From contig CAZWVR010000003.1 in the NCBI GenBank assembly GCA_964637235.1, positions 1 to 50,340 on the forward strand: DNA of 50,340 bases. The letters are read 5' to 3'. Shown in pieces: positions 24,255 to 32,321 of the stretch. The notes beneath the pieces were generated by a model. It was given only the letters and a program-made list of their open reading frames with translations. It searched no databases and was not told the origin of the DNA. The stretch comes from an uncultured Bacteroidales bacterium (GTDB lineage: Bacteria; Bacteroidota; Bacteroidia; Bacteroidales; S143-33). How positions within the stretch are numbered: position 1 is the first letter of the stretch; every line of letters starts with the position of its first letter. The translations under genes and the position numbers were made by a program.

Positions 24255-24354
24255 GATTATGCTACTTCTGATGCTTCTGTATATACAAAATTAGAAAATC
24301 TTAATTTGCTTCAAAATTAAAACTCTTTTATCTTTGTATATAAAAAAGCTAAAT

Positions 24355-25902
24355 ATGAAAAGCTTTGTTGCTTGGCTTACAACTATTTTTCATCATTGGG
24401 GCTTTTCTTCACATGGAGTAGAAATAGCTATTACAGTTGTGTTATTTATAATTCTTCTTTTTATAGCATGGGTTGCTAATTTGTTAACAAAATATGTAAT
24501 TGTTAAGATTGTTGAAGCAATAATTAAGAAGACAAAAAATGACTATGATGATGTATTTATTCAACATAAGGCTTTTAATAATCTTTCGCATATAATTCCT
24601 GCTTTGATTATATATTTTGGAGTACCTTTTACATCTAAAAGTGAGGTTTTCATTGGTGTAATTAGGGATTTGACTTATGTATATCTTATTATTGCTATTT
24701 TATTGGTTATCAATAAGATATTAAATGCATTGAACGATATTTATGAGATTTATGCTGAGAAACGACAAATAAATGTTCATATAAAGCAGTTTATTCAAGT
24801 TGTAAAGATAATTTTTATCATAATTGCCATAATTTTAATTATTTCTGTGATCCTTCATAAAAAACCTGGTGCAATACTCGCAGGTTTAGGTGCTATGACA
24901 GCAGTACTTATGTTAATTTTTCGCGATTCTATTTTAAGTTTTGTTGCAGGTATTCAATTAACTGCATATCAGATGGTTAAAGAGGGTGATTGGATAACGG
25001 TACCTTCTCGCGGCATTGATGGGGATGTTATGGATATTAGTCTTAATACTGTTAAAATACGTAATTTTGATAAGACCATATCTACAATACCTACATATGC
25101 TTTGGTACAGGAGTCTTTTATCAATTGGAAAGGAATGGAGCAGAGTGGTGGGCGTAGAATAAAAAGGAGCATTTATATAGATATGAATTCTATTAAAATT
25201 GCTGATAATGAACTTGTTGAAAAATTACGAAAAATAAGTTTCCTTAAAGAAATTATTGAACAAGAAAATACAGAATTAAGCAATGATTTGATTAAAATTG
25301 CAGAAAATCAGGCTATTACAAATATTACTCTGTTTAGACATTATATTGAAGCTTATATTAGAAAAAATTTCCGAGTTTATAAGAAATATAAAAAGCAAAC
25401 TTTTATCAAGGATTCAGTAGTTATTGAAAGGTTTGTTATAGATGATCCTGAGGAATTTAAAGCAGACTTAGGCAAATACGCTGATAAATATACAGAAGTT
25501 CTTGATGGTAAATTGATTATCAAAGATGTAAATAAGTTTTTAATACATTTTTCTGATAAATATGTGCTTGAAAATAACTATTTATATAAAGTTAATAAGA
25601 GGCAGAAAACAATAATTGTAAAAGGTACAGAAGTTAAGCGAGATTATTATGAAAAGATTTTAATAAAGCCGGGCTTATTTTGTGATGATTTAACAATGCT
25701 TGTGAGGGAATTACCACCTTCGGAAAAAGGATTGCCCATAGAGGTTTATGTTTTTGCTGCTACTACTGATTGGGCTACTTATGAGCAAATACAGGCACGT
25801 CTGATTGAGCATTTATTAGCAGTTATACCTTTATTTGAACTTAGAGCATTTCAGCAACCTGCGGGTAGTGATTTCAATTTACTATTGAATAAGTCTAATT
25901 AA
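24355..25902 (+). CDS. MscS-family mechanosensitive channel with an enlarged C-terminal cytoplasmic region
   Basis: N-terminal TM helices and the MscS beta-domain signature GDWITVPSRGIDGDVMDISLNTVKIRNFDKTISTIPTYALVQESFINW. I chose the ATG at 24355; the track start at 24334 is a TTG. Confidence 0.85.
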   Translation: MKSFVAWLTTIFHHWGFSSHGVEIAITVVLFIILLFIAWVANLLTKYVIVKIVEAIIKKTKNDYDDVFIQHKAFNNLSHIIPALIIYFGVPFTSKSEVFIGVIRDLTYVYLIIAILLVINKILNALNDIYEIYAEKRQINVHIKQFIQVVKIIFIIIAIILIISVILHKKPGAILAGLGAMTAVLMLIFRDSILSFVAGIQLTAYQMVKEGDWITVPSRGIDGDVMDISLNTVKIRNFDKTISTIPTYALVQESFINWKGMEQSGGRRIKRSIYIDMNSIKIADNELVEKLRKISFLKEIIEQENTELSNDLIKIAENQAITNITLFRHYIEAYIRKNFRVYKKYKKQTFIKDSVVIERFVIDDPEEFKADLGKYADKYTEVLDGKLIIKDVNKFLIHFSDKYVLENNYLYKVNKRQKTIIVKGTEVKRDYYEKILIKPGLFCDDLTMLVRELPPSEKGLPIEVYVFAATTDWATYEQIQARLIEHLLAVIPLFELRAFQQPAGSDFNLLLNKSN

Positions 25903-28900
25903 ATTTTCATTCTGCTAAATATATGTTTTATAATTTCACGGTCTGTTGCTAAAAGATTGAAAAATTTAAATCGGTTTAAAGCTAAAATATTTGCTTTTTT
26001 TTCGACTATTAGTTTTTGGGTTTTTATTGGTGCATTTAATCCTCTTATAATTAGTGTATTTCGGGAGAAGTTTTTGTTTTCTGCTTTTAATTCGCCTTTT
26101 ATTATCAAAAAGATATATTCTTGTCCTTCAATAAAGAAATTTAGTGTTTCTCCTTCTGACAGTTTTATTTGTTTGCTTATTTCTGCTACATATTGTAGTG
26201 ATTTTTCTGAAACAGTGTAGAATAAATAGATTCGTTTTAGTTTTTTTATTCTATCAATGATAAGATCATCTTTATTTTTTAGTTTGTTAAGTATATGGCT
26301 TTTATTTTTTGGTATTGTAGAAAAAATTTTTTCGCACAATTGTGGAGAAATTTTATATAGAATTTTAGCTGCGGTATCAAATACAAGTGGGTCTGGGTTA
26401 TAAATTGCGATTAAAATATCGCGAATTGTACATTTTTCCAGTTTTTTGTATATAAGTTGGGCTTGTTCTCGTGTCCAAGTTTCAGGAAATTGAATTTTGG
26501 GTATCTCTTGGATATTGATTTGGGTTTTGTCGATTTGTTTTGCAAGTAGTTCCAAAGCTTTTGATATTGTCCAGTTATCTATTCGTCTATAATCACTCAT
26601 AATGATGTCAAGCAGACGTTCTTTGAAAGTAAGGTTTTCATAATGGAAATGAGGTTTAAGGCGTTTTACTTTTTGTCCAATACTGATGGGTTCAAATATA
26701 GGTAGTAAAATATGTTTAATATCGTTATCTATAAAGTTATCAATCAATTCTAAGGCAAATATAGTGTTTTCTCCAATTATATTTGTTTTTATCAGTTCAA
26801 TAAGTTCTGTTTCGTGAATAAAAGATAAGAGTTTAAATAATTGTTCAAATTTGCTAATTCTTTCTAAATCAAGTGATTGCACTAGTTTTAAAGTATTTTT
26901 TTCTCTAACAATATCTCTTATTGATAGATATAGCCACATAATATTATCTACTGTATCTTTAATTTTTTCTTTAATTATTGCGATAGTGTCTTCCTTTGCT
27001 TTAAAATCTGAGTAATAAAGCGCGTCAATTACAACTTCTTGTATATGCCTGTTTGGATAATTTATATAAGAAATTATCATTCGTTGTGCTTTGGCTGTGC
27101 CTATTTTTGCAAATACTTGGAGTATTTTTTCTTTTACGATGTTGTTTTGGGTATTTATAAAAAATTTATTCAGTATGTTTAGAATATCTTCACCAATTTC
27201 AACTAAAATACTGATTACCAGGTTATTGTATTCAGAGTCTTCTAAAAGTTTTATAATTTTTTCCCATAATTGTGGAGTTTTTCGTTTGCTTGCCAATTTA
27301 ATAGCAGCTAATTTTACTTGTCTATTATCATCTTCCAGTAGAATTTTTATGTATTTTATATCTCTGGGCTGGGGAAATTTTATGAAATATTTTATTGCTT
27401 TTATTTTATCTTTAACATTTGAGGAGTTAATTAATTGTTCTATTTCCTGATCTGAGGCAGGATTAGTTATATCTGAGAAATCGAGGTTGTAAAGTGCTTG
27501 GATTATAATTTTTTGTAGTTCTCGTTCTTTAAAACCTATTTTATCGCCAACTTGTTCAATTATTTTTACTAATTTTTGAGTGTAAGTGCTATCAATATTT
27601 AGCAGGATAATTTTTCTAAGGAGGTTATCGTCGATTTTTAGCAGAAAGCTGGCATAAACTTCCAGACTCCGGGGATTTGTTTCTGAAAGGACTAATGCAC
27701 TGAATTTATAGGTATTTTTTTCTGGGCTTAAAATATTTTTTTGGAGTATATCTAAGGCAAAAACATCTTTTTCTACGTATTGAAAATCAAAAAGGCGTTT
27801 TTCTTCTAAAATTTGGTGGATCCGATATTTGTATGTATTGTATAATTTAAAGGCGCTGAGAATAAATAAAATCATTACTGGCAGGATATAAAGTGGATAT
27901 AGTCCTAATTTAAATATTTCTCCACCTTTGACCAGTGTAAGATTTATGATAAAAAGTATGATTCCTGCCAAAGCTATTGCCAGTTGTTGAACAATTCCTA
28001 CTCGGGTTTGGATATATAATTTTTGATTATCCGGTAAAGCTTGATATAGAACATTAAAAGATGGGTCGTCTATACCTCGACGGATTATTCGTTCCAGCAT
28101 TTTATTAGCAGTAATAAATCCTAAAAAGAAAAAGCTTAATGTTCCAGCAATTTGTGCACTTATAAAAGCTAAAAGAAAAATAGTTGTTATTGTAATACCC
28201 ATAAATGTCAATCCTACTTTTATTCCCCATCGGCTGAGAATTCTACCTGAAAATACTGATATTAAAAATTCGCCTATTTTTAATCCTGCAAATACTATTG
28301 ACATAAAAGCTGCTACTGCTTGATCGTTCGGGAAAAGTCCTGTTTGTGATTTTATGGTGATAAGAAATCCATAGTCCACTAAAAAAATTACTACTGCCGA
28401 AAGTAAAGCTGTAATAAAAATGAATATTATGAACTTATTTTTTAGAAGTTTACTTTTTATAAAATTTTGTTTTACTTCATTATGGAACGATTTGGTTTCG
28501 GGGAATTTTTTATATATGTAGAAAATTAAAATAATAGCAGCTATAAGTCCTATGCTTCCTATTAGAATTAAATCATAATGATGAGGTAAAATTTTTATTA
28601 GCAAACTAATTGTAAAATAGCTGATTATAGCTGCAATAACTCCACCGAGATTTATTAAGCCGTAGAATTTTTTCACTTGCAGTAGGTTAAGAAGTCGGAC
28701 GGCTAAGCCTCCTGTTACAGTAGAAACAAAAGCAATAAAGGGCCAAGCCCATATAAAAACAAAAAAAGCTAAATATTTATATGCTAATTTTTTTTCATAG
28801 GTAGTTAAGCTTAGTAGATTTTTATCTAACAAGACCAGAAAAAAGCGAGATATAAGGGAGATGAATAACATAATCAATATGGCGATGGTAAAAAGAGTTT

Positions 28901-29153
28901 TGCTTTTATATTTTATTTGAATATTTGAATAGATTACAATGGCAATAGTGCCTACTATTCCTGAGAATATATAGGCAATAGGGAGTTCCTTATGTCCAAA
29001 GTTTGCTAAAAATTGGGAGTTGGCAGGTACAAAATAAAAGGCTATAAATAAACCTAAGAAAAATGAAAAAATAAATAGAAATTTGAGTTTATTAAAATCC
29101 TCTTTTGTTAATTTGAATTTATCTCTAAAATATTTTTCTATACTAAATTTCAT
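25899..29153 (-). CDS. 1084-aa fusion: 12-TM MFS/TLC-like transporter domain, HEAT-like helical repeats and a C-terminal cNMP-binding-like module
   Basis: About 12 hydrophobic helices in aa 22-440 (nt 27834-29090). HEAT-like repeats lie around aa 575-720 (LLEDDNRQVKLAAIKLASKRK, YPNRHIQEVVIDALYYS). The C-terminal aa 965-1084 have cNMP-domain-like spacing (LFYTVSEKSLQYVAE..LSEGETL..GQEYIFLIIKGELK) but no clear phosphate-binding cassette. Confidence 0.8.
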   Translation of the reverse strand: MKFSIEKYFRDKFKLTKEDFNKLKFLFIFSFFLGLFIAFYFVPANSQFLANFGHKELPIAYIFSGIVGTIAIVIYSNIQIKYKSKTLFTIAILIMLFISLISRFFLVLLDKNLLSLTTYEKKLAYKYLAFFVFIWAWPFIAFVSTVTGGLAVRLLNLLQVKKFYGLINLGGVIAAIISYFTISLLIKILPHHYDLILIGSIGLIAAIILIFYIYKKFPETKSFHNEVKQNFIKSKLLKNKFIIFIFITALLSAVVIFLVDYGFLITIKSQTGLFPNDQAVAAFMSIVFAGLKIGEFLISVFSGRILSRWGIKVGLTFMGITITTIFLLAFISAQIAGTLSFFFLGFITANKMLERIIRRGIDDPSFNVLYQALPDNQKLYIQTRVGIVQQLAIALAGIILFIINLTLVKGGEIFKLGLYPLYILPVMILFILSAFKLYNTYKYRIHQILEEKRLFDFQYVEKDVFALDILQKNILSPEKNTYKFSALVLSETNPRSLEVYASFLLKIDDNLLRKIILLNIDSTYTQKLVKIIEQVGDKIGFKERELQKIIIQALYNLDFSDITNPASDQEIEQLINSSNVKDKIKAIKYFIKFPQPRDIKYIKILLEDDNRQVKLAAIKLASKRKTPQLWEKIIKLLEDSEYNNLVISILVEIGEDILNILNKFFINTQNNIVKEKILQVFAKIGTAKAQRMIISYINYPNRHIQEVVIDALYYSDFKAKEDTIAIIKEKIKDTVDNIMWLYLSIRDIVREKNTLKLVQSLDLERISKFEQLFKLLSFIHETELIELIKTNIIGENTIFALELIDNFIDNDIKHILLPIFEPISIGQKVKRLKPHFHYENLTFKERLLDIIMSDYRRIDNWTISKALELLAKQIDKTQINIQEIPKIQFPETWTREQAQLIYKKLEKCTIRDILIAIYNPDPLVFDTAAKILYKISPQLCEKIFSTIPKNKSHILNKLKNKDDLIIDRIKKLKRIYLFYTVSEKSLQYVAEISKQIKLSEGETLNFFIEGQEYIFLIIKGELKAENKNFSRNTLIIRGLNAPIKTQKLIVEKKANILALNRFKFFNLLATDREIIKHIFSRMKI

Positions 29154-29162
29154 ATAAAAAAG

Positions 29163-30572
29163 CTAATCATTTTGCTGTTGCAAAATAACTAATTTTTCTT
29201 TTCTGAATTTATATATTTTGACCACAACATAAATTGTTATTAAAAATGCCAATATTGAAATTATCCAGAATACAGTGTCGGAATTTGGTGACTTGAATTT
29301 TATTGCTCTTTCAATGGCTTTATATATGTTTAAAATGCCTATCACAGTGGTTATCCATACTACAAAAGACATTAAAATATTGGAAAAATGGCTATTTATC
29401 CGTTTTTTCCCCATTATTTCAGGATTATTTATTACTATCATCAGAAATATACTGATGAAGGGTAAAATTAGTCCATTAAATGCTTGTGCCAAAATTATTG
29501 CAGGAACAGGTTTAACTTGTAAGAAACCGAATGTTAGACCGACTGCTAAAATTGTAATTGTCAATAATCTAAATCTTAATGATTGAGATCCCCATTTTTC
29601 ATTATTTTGTTGATTGAGTAAACTGCGGGTTGTAATTGCCGAAGCCAGAGGTGCAGTGATAGCTGATGTAAAACCTGCTGCAAACATTCCTATACCAAAA
29701 ATATATACAGCATATTCATTGATGTATGAGTTTAAATATAAAGCGTCTTTTATAATATCAAATGAGAAGGTTAGATTTTTTAGAGCTTCCTCAGACCAGC
29801 CAGCTGTTAGCGCACTTCCTACTGTCATTATAGACATTGATATTATGCCTCCTAATATTATTGCTACGCTTAGTCCAAAACGTACATCTCTGATATTGTG
29901 TGTTTTATCTATTATGCCTGAGCCAAGAAATATATCGTAAGGGACTACGGTAGTTCCTATAATTCCTAATATCAATATTCCGGCTCCTGGTACATCTGGA
30001 ATAGTTGGTATAAAGCTTCCTAATAGTAATGCATCAATATCAGGTTTGACAACTATGGCTGTAAATAGGAATGCAAAGCCCATTAAAAATACAAATGCAC
30101 CAAGAAATTGGGCAATTATGCGTATAGATTTTAAGTTTAAAGCAATAATGGCAAGAAGGGCAACGATAGTTACGAACCATAATTTATCTGTATGCGGGAA
30201 AATAAAATGTAAGCCTTCAATGGAACCGAGAATATTACCGGCTTCATAAGCTGCGCTACCAAGTACTATTGCCATTATTACAGAAAATATGACTGCACCT
30301 CGCGATTTTTTACCTGCAAATTGTTTTGCTATTGCTTCTCCTAAGTTCATACCAGAATATATGGTAATCCGGGCGCTAGCTTCTTGGAGTAATAGACAGG
30401 CAAAAATGGAAAATAGTATGGTCCACATTAAATCAAAATGATAATATACGCCTGCCTTGGTTAAGGTTGTCACTGTGCCAGGTCCTATAAACGCAGCTGA
30501 TACTACTGACCAAAATAGTATTACGAAAAATTTATGTCTTATTTTCTTTAATATGTTTTTAAGTTTATTCAT
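29163..30572 (-). CDS. NRAMP-fold (SLC11-like) transporter lacking the canonical metal-binding residues
   Basis: The TM1 motif is AAFIGPGTVTT where MntH has DPGN. The TM6 motif is GTTVVPYDIFLGS where MntH has GATVMPHxxxLHS. About 11-12 TM helices; 469 aa. Confidence 0.8.
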   Translation of the reverse strand: MNKLKNILKKIRHKFFVILFWSVVSAAFIGPGTVTTLTKAGVYYHFDLMWTILFSIFACLLLQEASARITIYSGMNLGEAIAKQFAGKKSRGAVIFSVIMAIVLGSAAYEAGNILGSIEGLHFIFPHTDKLWFVTIVALLAIIALNLKSIRIIAQFLGAFVFLMGFAFLFTAIVVKPDIDALLLGSFIPTIPDVPGAGILILGIIGTTVVPYDIFLGSGIIDKTHNIRDVRFGLSVAIILGGIISMSIMTVGSALTAGWSEEALKNLTFSFDIIKDALYLNSYINEYAVYIFGIGMFAAGFTSAITAPLASAITTRSLLNQQNNEKWGSQSLRFRLLTITILAVGLTFGFLQVKPVPAIILAQAFNGLILPFISIFLMIVINNPEIMGKKRINSHFSNILMSFVVWITTVIGILNIYKAIERAIKFKSPNSDTVFWIISILAFLITIYVVVKIYKFRKEKLVILQQQND

Positions 30573-31099
30573 TGAGCGTCTTTAACATATTCAAATATTT
30601 TGAGTTTTTCTCTCATCTGTTCAATAACTTCCTCTATATTAAGATTTTGCTGTTTTTGTAGTAAGTGTTGCAATGCTTCAATAGGTTCAAAATTGGAGGT
30701 AAAATCTCCGTCTAATATTTTGGCAGGACCATTTTTCCTTCGGTAATAAAAAGCGTACTTGGCTTTGTCGGGTTCAAAGCTATATTTCCCTTTTTCTCTT
30801 AATTGCCAGATGGGTGTTATATCAAGGTCATAACCTTTGGGAAATTGTCCCGATAGGGCTTCTAAAAAGTTTATTCTTTCCAGTGCATAAAAGCTAACTA
30901 TATAAACTTCTCCTATTGTAGCAGCATTTTTGTATCTTTTATCTATGTAAACACTTCCTTGTTCAGATTTCATCAGTTGCCCATTAGTATAGTAGTACCC
31001 TTTGAATTCTGCTCCTTTGATGTAAAAATGAAATTTTTGTCCTTGCCTAAGGGTACCATATACAAATAATCTAATTTTGGGTTTATCTAATCCGTTCAT
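30569..31099 (-). CDS. Gamma-glutamylcyclotransferase-fold (AIG2/GGACT-like) protein with a helical C-terminal extension
   Basis: N-terminal LFVYGTLRQG signature, then GEVYIV..LERINFLEAL resembling the G-x-ly..lD..E region. The last ~50 aa have no match I recognise. Confidence 0.7.
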   Translation of the reverse strand: MNGLDKPKIRLFVYGTLRQGQKFHFYIKGAEFKGYYYTNGQLMKSEQGSVYIDKRYKNAATIGEVYIVSFYALERINFLEALSGQFPKGYDLDITPIWQLREKGKYSFEPDKAKYAFYYRRKNGPAKILDGDFTSNFEPIEALQHLLQKQQNLNIEEVIEQMREKLKIFEYVKDAQ

Positions 31100-31232
31100 A
31101 ATTATTTTTGTATTTCTAAAACAAATTCTTTACCAATTTTTGAGTTTTTTTATTGCGTTTTTTAGATTTAAAAAAATTGCAAATTTGCACAAAATTTATA
31201 AAAAAGTTGGTTTATACCAAAATTATTTTTCA

Positions 31233-32321
31233 ATGCGAATACTTATTGCTTTTGATAAGTTCAAATATACTTTTTCTGCGGAGGAAATTACACATATAGT
31301 CGCTCAGTTGTTAGATTCAGATAAATACACTATTTGGGAAGTGCCACTTTCTGATGGAGGTGAAGGATTTTTAGATGTCATAAAAAGATATGTGTCTGCT
31401 CAATTTATTGAGTTAAAAACATATAATGCCATTTTAGAAGTAATTACTGCCCCTGTTTTAGTTGCTGGGAGGGTTGCGTTTATAGAATGTGCTAACACTT
31501 GTGGTATTGCCAATCTACCTGCTGATAAAAGAAATCCACTTTTTACTACAAGTTTTGGTCTTGGAATTCAAATAAAAAAATTGTTAGAGTCTGAGGGAGT
31601 TTCAGAATTTTATATTGGTTTAGGAGGGAGTGCTACTCATGATGTTGGTATTGGAATGGCTGCGGCTTTGGGGTATAGATTTATAGATGTTTATAAGCGT
31701 GAATTAAAACCCATAGGCAAAAATCTTATTGAAATAAATCATATTGTTTTTCCGAAGTCTTTTCCATCAGGGGTAAAGTTTACAGGTGTGTGCGATGTTA
31801 GAAATCCTTTATTGGGAGAAAATGGGGCTGCATATACCTTTGCACAGCAAAAAGGAGCACGGGAATATGAAATTCAGTTATTGGAGAAGGGTACAAAAAA
31901 TATTAGTGAAAAGATTAGGCAATATTTAAAACAGAATATTGGATATGGAGCTTTTGAAGGCGCAGCTGGCGGATTGGGTGCTGGTATTAAAGCCTTTTTG
32001 AGGGGTAAACTTATTTCAGGAGCTCAATTTGTTTTTAAACTTGCTGATATTGAGCATAAAATAAAAAATGCTGATGTTATTATTACTGGCGAGGGTCGTC
32101 TGGATAAAACATCTTTTAAAGGTAAACTTACCGGAGAGATTTATAAACTTGCTGTTAAATATCATAAAAAGCTTATAGTTATTTGTGGTTCATTGTATGG
32201 GGATATAGATTTACCAAATTTGGAGATTTATCCTCTGTTTTACGAAAAAGTGCCCATTTCAATAGCTAAAAAATTAACTCCCCAGAGAATGAAACTTGTT
32301 ATAAATAATATTTTTAAGTAA
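31233..32321 (+). CDS. glxK: Glycerate kinase
   Basis: MRILIAFDKFKYTFSAEE and PLSDGGEGF at the N-terminus, with ITGEGRLDKTSFKGK in the C-terminal half. The track start at 31077 is a TTG giving 52 junk residues that overlap the divergent gene. Confidence 0.88.
   Translation: MRILIAFDKFKYTFSAEEITHIVAQLLDSDKYTIWEVPLSDGGEGFLDVIKRYVSAQFIELKTYNAILEVITAPVLVAGRVAFIECANTCGIANLPADKRNPLFTTSFGLGIQIKKLLESEGVSEFYIGLGGSATHDVGIGMAAALGYRFIDVYKRELKPIGKNLIEINHIVFPKSFPSGVKFTGVCDVRNPLLGENGAAYTFAQQKGAREYEIQLLEKGTKNISEKIRQYLKQNIGYGAFEGAAGGLGAGIKAFLRGKLISGAQFVFKLADIEHKIKNADVIITGEGRLDKTSFKGKLTGEIYKLAVKYHKKLIVICGSLYGDIDLPNLEIYPLFYEKVPISIAKKLTPQRMKLVINNIFK

Follow-up and report, generated by a model that had tools for sequence, protein, structure and literature searches.

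The window analyzed here, a stretch of 50,340 nucleotides from an uncultured Bacteroidales bacterium (contig CAZWVR010000003.1, positions 1 to 50,340), encodes a 469-residue protein on the minus strand at 29163–30572. On the basis of its open reading frame, a Pfam match, an AlphaFold2 (AF2) model and Foldseek comparisons, we assign this protein to the Nramp-fold carriers (PF01566), and more specifically to the PYD sub-type of the orphan outgroup, in which the three metal-ligating side chains of the family are replaced. The plus-strand translation of the same interval is riddled with stop codons and is non-coding. The carrier gene occupies the central position in a compact set of three minus-strand genes. 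It is preceded by a gene for a GGACT/AIG2-like protein with the γ-glutamyl cyclotransferase (GGCT) fold (176 residues; 30569–31099, minus strand; Pfam PF06094), the TGA stop codon of which overlaps the carrier ATG (ATGA). A gene for a protein of 1,084 residues, here termed MFS-HEAT (25899–29153, minus strand), begins 9 nt past the carrier stop codon.

Family membership and predicted fold of the carrier

The carrier matches the Nramp profile of Pfam (PF01566) over profile positions 1–355 of 357, with an E-value of 1.3e-63 and 215.6 bits. Its AF2 model, built on 40 homologues, has a mean predicted local distance difference test score (pLDDT) of 86.5 and a predicted TM-score (pTM) of 0.87, and Foldseek aligned it with inward-open DraNramp, B. 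fragilis Nramp and EleNRMT at target-normalized TM-scores (TMt) of 0.86–0.90. The topology comprises 11 core transmembrane (TM) helices and an additional C-terminal helix formed by residues 431–468. As judged by the profile match and the model, the carrier retains the Nramp/LeuT scaffold, in agreement with the original prediction, which had been made by eye from the DNA sequence and had proposed that a LeuT-like NRAMP scaffold is kept. The carrier model also matches PDB entry 9a52 (TMt 0.81), an integrative model, based on cross-linking, of YcsG from B. subtilis with FabL.

The carrier scores below the cutoffs of both the curated NCBIfam MntH model (124.5 versus 430 bits) and TIGR01197 (95.2 versus 272.5 bits), and narrowly passes the looser model NF037982 (58.9 versus 50 bits). 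The latter is named 'Nramp family divalent metal transporter' and is typed as an equivalog, yet it is passed by a carrier without any metal ligand, and it probably spreads a wrong functional name through the annotations of metagenome-assembled genomes (MAGs). Because NF037982 is passed, relatives of the carrier bear public names such as "Nramp family divalent metal transporter" and "manganese transport protein"; for the group to which the carrier belongs, the label of divalent metal transporter is probably incorrect.

Replacement of the metal-binding residues

The coordinates of the sequence motifs were confirmed by translating the window, and residue equivalences were taken from phmmer alignments to solved structures of DraNramp (8e6h among them; E ~1e-21, ~390 residues aligned). 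In TM1, AFIGPGTVTT in the carrier pairs with AYMDPGNFAT in DraNramp. The unwound TM1 motif thus reads G30-P31-G32-T33 in place of DPGN (30474–30485, minus strand; phmmer and translation), with G30 and T33 at the positions of the DraNramp metal ligands D56 and N59, respectively. In TM6, GIIGATVMPHVIYLHS of DraNramp pairs with GIIGTTVVPYDIFLGS of the carrier. The carrier motif, G206-T-T-V-V-P-Y-D-I-F-L-G-S218 (29919–29957, minus strand; alignment, translation and conservation), has T207 at the position of A227, V210 at M230, Y212 at H232, and G217 at H237, the second TM6 His. In TM3, the signature G105-SAA-Y109-E110-A-G112-N113-IL-G116-SIE-G120 (30213–30260, minus strand; alignment, translation and conservation) has E110 at the position of D131 and N113 at that of E134. 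Q378 is retained as Q363.

The original prediction had read the TM1 motif DPGN as changed to GPGT at residues 30–33 and the TM6 motif GATVMPHxxxLHS as altered at residues 206–218, so that Asp, Asn, Met and both His residues are replaced by Gly, Thr, Val, Tyr and Gly. The same replacements emerge from the profile and structure–sequence alignments, in which A-x-x-MPH…LHS becomes T-x-x-VPY…LGS; the eye alignment was not shifted, and there is no Asp, Asn or Met at the site positions.

Canonical MntH/DMT proteins (DraNramp, ScaDMT, EcoDMT and B. fragilis Nramp) share with the carrier the LeuT-fold core of 11 TM helices with its unwound TM1 and TM6 segments, the conserved residues P31, G32, T208, P211 and Q363, and an acidic residue in TM3 (E110), whereas their D56, N59, M230, H232 and H237 are all replaced in the carrier. 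The branch of Nramp-related Mg2+ transporters, NRMT (EleNRMT, 7QIA), likewise has the same fold (TMt 0.86), places a Thr at the first of the TM6 site positions, and has lost the Met and the TM6b histidines (PMC8806188). However, NRMT keeps the TM1 Asp (DxxG, TxxA/T), and the GxxT, TxxV arrangement of the carrier does not conform to it; nor does the carrier have the pattern of the Al3+ branch NRAT, DxxN and AxxT. That NRMT and NRAT keep the Asp had been noted in the original prediction, and is borne out by the published signatures, which are DxxN-AxxM for classical members, DxxN-AxxT for NRAT and DxxG-TxxA/T for NRMT (PMC8806188).

A conserved clade with the same signature

All of the 120 nearest homologues (50–68% identity; from Bacteroidales and Bacteroidota MAGs) carry GPGT and TTV[VI]PYD[LI]FLGS. 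In addition, 1.84 billion cluster representatives were searched exhaustively with HMMER, which returned 339 at E<=1e-30, and conservation was scored in the 124 full-length representatives at 50% identity found among the best 150 of these. G30 is kept in 122 of the 124, T33 in 121, T207 in 122, V210 in 121 and Y212 in 122, and the near-invariant residues are G30, P31, G32, T33, N113, T207, T208, V210, P211, Y212, S303, T306, Q363 and N366. A whole GPGT/VPY clade, the existence of which the original prediction had raised as a question, is therefore present, with the signature shared by ~122 of the 124 representatives and with HyuA/B (PYN sub-type) or GGACT-like proteins (PYD sub-type) as genomic neighbors. 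In 42% of the representatives, position 110 is Gln and position 213 is Asn, which leaves no acidic residue at the equivalents of the Nramp metal and proton sites. Across the clade, position 110 is dimorphic (E in 71 and Q in 52), as is position 217 (G in 55 and H in 51); the two dimorphisms occur in all combinations, and may mark differing proton or ion coupling.

PF01566 comprises the Slc11 family and two outgroups, the "orphan and NRMT types" (PMC10606218, PMC9606685, PMC4072509). The orphan type is distinguished by changes at the metal site, with the Slc11 Mn/H+ residues lost, by A to Y and G to N substitutions together with four invariant Gly residues in TM3, and by M to V, H to Y and A to T substitutions in TM6 (PMC10606218). 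The carrier displays both the TM3 pattern (Y109 and N113, four residues apart, and G105, G112, G116 and G120) and the TM6 pattern (T207, V210 and Y212), and as judged by this signature it belongs to Cellier's Slc11 'orphan outgroup'. The original prediction, which treated the carrier as unrecognized, must be corrected on this point, since the clade has already been described (PMC9606685, PMC10606218). No substrate for the orphan outgroup was found in the accessible literature. Relative to the orphan outgroup at large, the window carrier differs by having D213 instead of Asn, by its GGACT-like and MFS-HEAT operon partners, and by the extra C-terminal helix.

PYD and PYN sub-types

The residue that follows the TM6 Tyr divides the clade in two: PYD, with D213, which includes the window carrier, and PYN, with N213. 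The codon of this main discriminator lies at 29934–29936 (minus strand) and was identified by sub-type comparison. Position 213 is Asp in 24 of 24 PYD and Asn in 63 of 63 PYN sequences; in the same comparison, a second near-fixed difference is seen at position 296 (M in PYD and L in PYN), and there are no other such positions. With D213 in only 4 of the 124 representatives, PYD is a minor sub-clade, and in a neighbor-joining tree it is monophyletic and nested within PYN (98 of 100 bootstraps). D213 directly follows Y212 at the start of TM6b, and helical periodicity places it on the same face as residue 217, the counterpart of DraNramp H237.

One of the 339 representatives (P0128, 920 residues) consists of a PYN-type domain (GPGT, TTVVPYN) fused to a C-terminal Amidohydro_1 domain. 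The fusion, seen in this single representative, could be a Rosetta-stone hint of amide or lactam substrates for the clade.

Conserved gene neighbors of the clade

A scan with the clade profile of one genome per GTDB species yielded at least 600 pattern matches; of the 600 examined, 586 proved to be relatives, and the best 80 loci were used for the comparison of gene context. Neighboring genes were clustered and recounted by tblastn, and four further contigs of close relatives were added.

In the PYN sub-type, a HyuA/B homologue is encoded on the same strand within 400 bp of the carrier in 37 of 70 loci, and elsewhere in the locus in 6 more. It is located upstream in 23 and downstream in 14 cases, and the stop and start codons often overlap. 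The HyuA/B proteins contain the domains Hydant_A_N, Hydantoinase_A and Hydantoinase_B (PF05378, PF01968 and PF02538) and span ~1,260 residues when fused, as they are in most bacteria; in some Acidobacteriota and in Haloarcula they are split into hyuA and hyuB. The hosts include Bacteroidota, Acidobacteriota, Balneolaceae, Latescibacterota, Aminicenantes, Methylococcales, Myxococcota and Halobacteria. Because the adjacency outlasts changes in gene order, fusion state and phylum, there is good evidence that the PYN carrier and HyuA/B form a functional pair. Beside the carrier and HyuA/B, conservation does not extend to a carbamoylsarcosine amidase, a creatininase or any further downstream enzyme. 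We regard the HyuA/B proteins as no more than putative 5-oxoprolinases, their solved relative in PDB entry 7hk5 being a chain of 1,288 residues labelled 'N-methylhydantoinase'. In two Roseivirga genomes, pxpCBA lies 3–4 kb from the PYN carrier on the opposite strand, with unrelated genes between (L071, 4433–6783; L078, 3543–5879), and this proximity lends weak support to a link with 5-oxoproline.

In the PYD sub-type, represented by 18 loci with the window counted, 15 loci have a gene for a GGACT-like protein directly upstream of the carrier, versus 0 of 70 PYN loci. The overlap of stop and start codons between these two genes is found in the window and in three of four close relatives. Neither HyuA/B nor PxpABC was detected by tblastn in any of the 18 PYD loci, the window included. 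The GGACT-like protein of the window scores 32.3 bits against PF06094 (cutoff 22.8) and matches PH0828, YkqA and YtfP. It has an N-terminal YGTL motif and a conserved Glu in GEVY (GE[VL]Y), both motifs being shared by the GGACT-like proteins encoded at the 10 loci under comparison, and inspection by eye revealed no evident signal peptide.

The MFS-HEAT gene is found downstream of the carrier in nine of the PYD loci examined (five genome loci including the window, and the four contigs of relatives). As a lower bound on co-occurrence, at least 32 among the 120 nearest homologues of the carrier are encoded on a contig identical in size to one bearing an MFS-HEAT homologue. The family is small, with 185 database matches, all of ~1,075–1,130 residues and from Bacteroidota and Chlorobi MAGs, and it is mostly encoded right after PYD-type carriers. 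The assignment of the MFS-HEAT protein is based on weak Pfam matches (MFS_1 and HEAT_2), AF2 and Foldseek. Its structure was predicted with database homologues (pLDDT 84.9), and the model shows an N-terminal 12-TM MFS domain, a HEAT-type α-solenoid at approximately residues 466–990, and a C-terminal β-roll with helices at approximately residues 993–1078. The best structural matches of the MFS domain are NTT ATP/ADP translocators (Foldseek; AtNTT1, TMt 0.72), and a sequence search returned no solved homologue of the protein. The C-terminal β-roll and helices resemble a cyclic-nucleotide-binding fold that is undetected by Pfam.

In the literature, which we could cover in part, we found no report that links the orphan clade or Nramp to HyuA/B, oxoprolinase, hydantoinase or GGACT genes, nor, with the same partial coverage, any relevant report on the function of bacterial GGACT proteins.

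The distant YcsG/PxpT type

By searching with E. coli PxpA, we reached genes of the YcsG/PxpT type, and recovered three Nramp-family genes beside pxpA, from plasmids of Bacillus badius, Lactiplantibacillus plantarum and Klebsiella. In an hhalign comparison, this type matches the window clade with a probability of 98.4% (E 9e-15, 330 columns). G30, N113, Y212 and N366 are common to both, where canonical MntH has D, E, H and L, and the YcsG/PxpT type, which includes PxpG and is known from the pxpABC 5-oxoprolinase operons of B. subtilis, C. glutamicum and C. difficile, is encoded next to an enzyme of 5-oxoproline metabolism. YcsG/PxpT is nevertheless a separate, more distant third type: (i) its motifs read GPGF / AFNIGN / GGTVGGY, whereas those of the window carrier read GPGT / AYEAGN / GTTVVPY; (ii) its members match PF01566 at 61–72 bits versus 215 for the window carrier; (iii) it is not found by phmmer or tblastn from the window protein; and (iv) its partner is PxpABC, whereas the partners of the window clade are HyuA/B or GGACT-like proteins.

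Growth of C. glutamicum on 5-oxoproline depends on PxpT, and the same paper states that B. subtilis can no longer use 5-oxoproline once ycsG is deleted (PMC13274462). The function of the type is disputed, with 5-oxoproline (PMC13274462) on one side and Mn2+ (PMC10448178) on the other.

A search of plasmids in PLSDB for YcsG-type genes, using tblastn with the window protein, gave partial matches that proved to be canonical MntH or unannotated stretches, and some of the canonical MntH genes adjoin mntR or metal-resistance genes; the YcsG-type genes were missed because they are too distant from the window protein. With a PYN-type query, only haloarchaeal, Qipengyuania and Pseudoalteromonas orphan-type genes were returned. 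The carriers of the YcsG/PxpT type (L091, L092 and L093) are accompanied by pxpA and by a 'putative hydro-lyase' (PF07286) that resembles D-Glu cyclase. The Klebsiella plasmid pKpN06-SIL (L093, 2749–9909) also carries genes for a GntR regulator and for urea-amidolyase/biotin-carboxylase proteins, and Klebsiella accounts for 98 of the 729 plasmid records that match PxpA.

Candidate substrate and alternative explanations

Based on these observations, we consider with about even confidence that the carrier moves an organic solute of the 5-oxoproline/γ-glutamyl type and not a divalent metal; we are far more confident that classical Mn2+/Fe2+ import is not its function. The original prediction had judged a non-metal or otherwise unconventional substrate to be probable, and the sequence-based evidence favors this view because: (i) a large, conserved clade has substitutions at all three metal-ligating side chains; (ii) 42% of the representatives have no acidic site residue; (iii) the neighboring genes encode 5-oxoproline-type lactam enzymes, with no metal regulator or riboswitch; and (iv) the distant YcsG/PxpT type is genetically needed for growth on 5-oxoproline.

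The more specific proposal comes from the partner enzymes, which are of three mutually non-homologous types. YcsG/PxpT carriers are paired with PxpABC, which consumes 5-oxoproline; PYN carriers with HyuA/B of the oxoprolinase/hydantoinase family, a presumed consumer; and PYD carriers with GGACT-like proteins, a family producing 5-oxoproline. Since three Asp-less branches are each tied to a different 5-oxoproline enzyme, 5-oxoproline or a γ-glutamyl relative would be the most economical common ligand.

Several observations weigh against this proposal. The substrate, the direction of transport and the coupling that we infer for the carrier derive from guilt by association. The carrier has two acidic residues at mapped positions, E110 and D213, which are possible cation binders, and helical periodicity is the only basis on which D213 would line the inner vestibule just below the site. 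Approximately half of the PYN loci have no HyuA/B neighbor, and the HyuA/B partners pass no NCBIfam equivalog model and have as their best solved relative a protein labelled N-methylhydantoinase; their substrate could be another lactam or a hydantoin. Kinship among Bacteroidales with conserved synteny may inflate the PYD counts. Finally, one report credits YcsG with raising cellular Mn and importing Mn2+, and renames it MntG (PMC10448178).

An alternative that we regard as unlikely is that the carrier transports an unconventional cation (Mg2+, Ca2+, a monovalent cation or hydrated Mn2+) by means of the hard oxygen ligands E110, D213, T33, T207, Y212, Q363 and N366, and that it may supply an enzyme cofactor, as has been proposed for YcsG/MntG. 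Both E110 and D213 are present in the carrier, and ATP-dependent oxoprolinases require divalent cations. Site substitutions have shifted ion specificity in NRMT and NRAT (PMC8806188), and an Acidobacterium Nramp-related protein of the NrmT grouping appeared to transport Mn (PMC4072509). Furthermore, overexpression of YcsG raised cellular Mn, and a triple mntH mntA ycsG mutant was unobtainable (PMC10448178). However, the TM1 Asp is kept in every characterized metal-transporting branch (PMC8806188), whereas it is Gly in 122 of the 124 representatives studied here, and 42% of the representatives have no acidic residue at the mapped site positions. The genomic surroundings also speak against a role in metal supply: there is no MntR, Fur or MgtE-like fragment near the carrier, Rfam detected no Mn or Mg riboswitch (M-box or yybP-ykoY) in the window, and no metal-related gene cluster is found among the conserved neighbors of the clade loci. 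The PYD partner is a GGCT-fold enzyme, and enzymes of this fold are not known to require a metal, so a supply of metal fails to explain the PYD pairing.

It also seems improbable to us that the carrier moves some other organic solute, such as a hydantoin, N-methylhydantoin, a creatinine-derived compound, another lactam or an amino acid, with the 5-oxoproline link being an artefact of family naming. The HyuA/B proteins are closest to the 'N-methylhydantoinase' chain and to caprolactamase models, none of them at the equivalog cutoff, and one clade member has a fused domain of Amidohydro_1, a superfamily that includes cyclic amidases along with related hydrolases. In addition, the orphan outgroup has been regarded as an evolutionary bridge to LeuT-fold carriers of non-metal substrates (PMC4072509). 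Nevertheless, the conserved module consists of the carrier and HyuA/B alone, which fits a one-step conversion, for example of 5-oxoproline to glutamate, and the GGACT-like partners of PYD and the pxpABC partners of YcsG/PxpT both indicate 5-oxoproline specifically.

We give very little credence to the idea that the carrier transports nothing and instead acts as a sensor/transceptor, as an accessory subunit of the MFS-HEAT protein or is a decaying gene: although the catalytic metal site is lost and the gene is tightly coupled to that of a large membrane protein of several domains, among them a β-roll that may bind a ligand, the site residues and the gating Gly are under very strong purifying selection in at least 339 clusters at 50% identity, the open reading frame is intact and gives a confident Nramp-like inward-open model, and most clade members occur without an MFS-HEAT partner.

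Proposed mechanism

If the carrier does move 5-oxoproline or a γ-glutamyl compound, it would do so as a rocking-bundle secondary carrier of the Nramp/LeuT fold with a central site at the unwound segments of TM1 and TM6. At this site, the Mn2+/Fe2+ ligands and the proton-relay His are exchanged for small or polar uncharged residues (G30, T33, T207, V210 and Y212), and the clade-invariant residues Y109, N113, S303, T306, Q363 and N366 are expected to be close by. Lined with hydroxyl and amide side chains, such a site would suit a small polar organic acid or a zwitterion. The NSS transporters, with Gly versus Asp in TM1, offer an analogy for carboxylate binding, which hints that a substrate carboxylate may fill the space of the missing TM1 Asp in the carrier. 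Coupling to H+ is plausible with E110 retained at the position of the proton acceptor D131, and may vary across the clade, approximately half of which has Gln at position 110.

The PYN type, which would be ancestral, is proposed to take up 5-oxoproline or a similar lactam, followed by ATP-dependent ring opening by HyuA/B. In the PYD operon, the cytosolic GGACT-like cyclotransferase would release 5-oxoproline from a γ-glutamyl compound. A single substitution, N213D, accompanies this switch of partner, which suggests that the carrier binds the same or nearly the same ligand and has gained an extra ammonium- or proton-binding group; since N213D alone distinguishes the site, the PYD ligand should be of the same size or nearly so. 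Two options can be envisaged: (i) the carrier imports a γ-glutamyl or 5-oxoproline-like zwitterion, with D213 pairing with the α-ammonium group of a small γ-glutamyl compound, which the GGACT-like enzyme would cleave to 5-oxoproline and an amine; or (ii) D213 is an added protonation site, and the carrier handles or disposes of the 5-oxoproline made by the cyclotransferase.

Extending this, we tentatively suggest that the operon of GGACT-like protein, PYD carrier and MFS-HEAT protein is an undescribed γ-glutamyl turnover system of Bacteroidota in which the carrier moves 5-oxoproline or a small γ-glutamyl amide, that the whole orphan outgroup consists of 5-oxoproline/lactam carriers, and that N213D retunes ligand or proton coupling at the switch from consumer to producer; we regard this wider proposal as a speculative one that may well not hold.

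Surroundings of the operon

An AT-rich intergenic region (31100–31232; no strand assigned; Rfam and sequence inspection) separates the operon from a divergent glycerate-kinase gene, and the promoters presumably lie within it. Rfam detected no element in this region, and its sole match in the whole window is one tRNA gene, at 259–341 on the minus strand. A scan for the σ70 consensus, which is unsuited to Bacteroidota, gave fewer sites than shuffled controls, and no terminator-like site was found on the minus strand within the operon. The glycerate-kinase open reading frame as listed (31077–32321, plus strand) has a TTG start and a hydrophobic extension of ~52 residues, with the Pfam match beginning at residue 55; its true start is probably an ATG near 31233. 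Two of the relatives (L094 and L096) likewise have a divergent glycerate-kinase gene upstream of the operon.

Downstream of the operon, the window has a convergent MscS-like gene (24334–25902). In three of four close relatives, the operon is followed on the same strand by a Pterin_bind (dihydropteroate synthase-like) gene (L094, 10704–11525; L096, 10688–11527; L097, 10740–11573), and this adjacency may reflect inherited synteny, or it may hint at a connection with folate or a γ-glutamyl tail. Elsewhere, the window contains ordinary chromosomal genes of Bacteroidota, among them those for RecN-like protein, trigger factor, ClpX, PEPCK, IspG, IspD, Maf and PorZ (type IX secretion).

Implications

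That there are Nramp proteins without metal ligands is already known to specialists. What may be new is the gene-context evidence that gives the orphan clade a candidate substrate, together with the PYD/GGACT/MFS-HEAT operon and its single-residue switch. For two decades, what makes Slc11 a metal transporter has been judged by comparison with the orphan branch, which lies at the root of the Nramp tree. The neighborhood pattern provides a concrete and cheaply testable hypothesis, namely that orphan carriers move 5-oxoproline or γ-glutamyl compounds. Should the hypothesis be wrong, the carrier stays an ordinary additional member of a known orphan clade. If it is true, it would show metal-ion and organic-acid sites interconverting on one scaffold, would bear on the dispute over YcsG/PxpT (5-oxoproline versus Mn2+), and would correct a systematic misannotation of hundreds of protein clusters as metal or manganese transporters.

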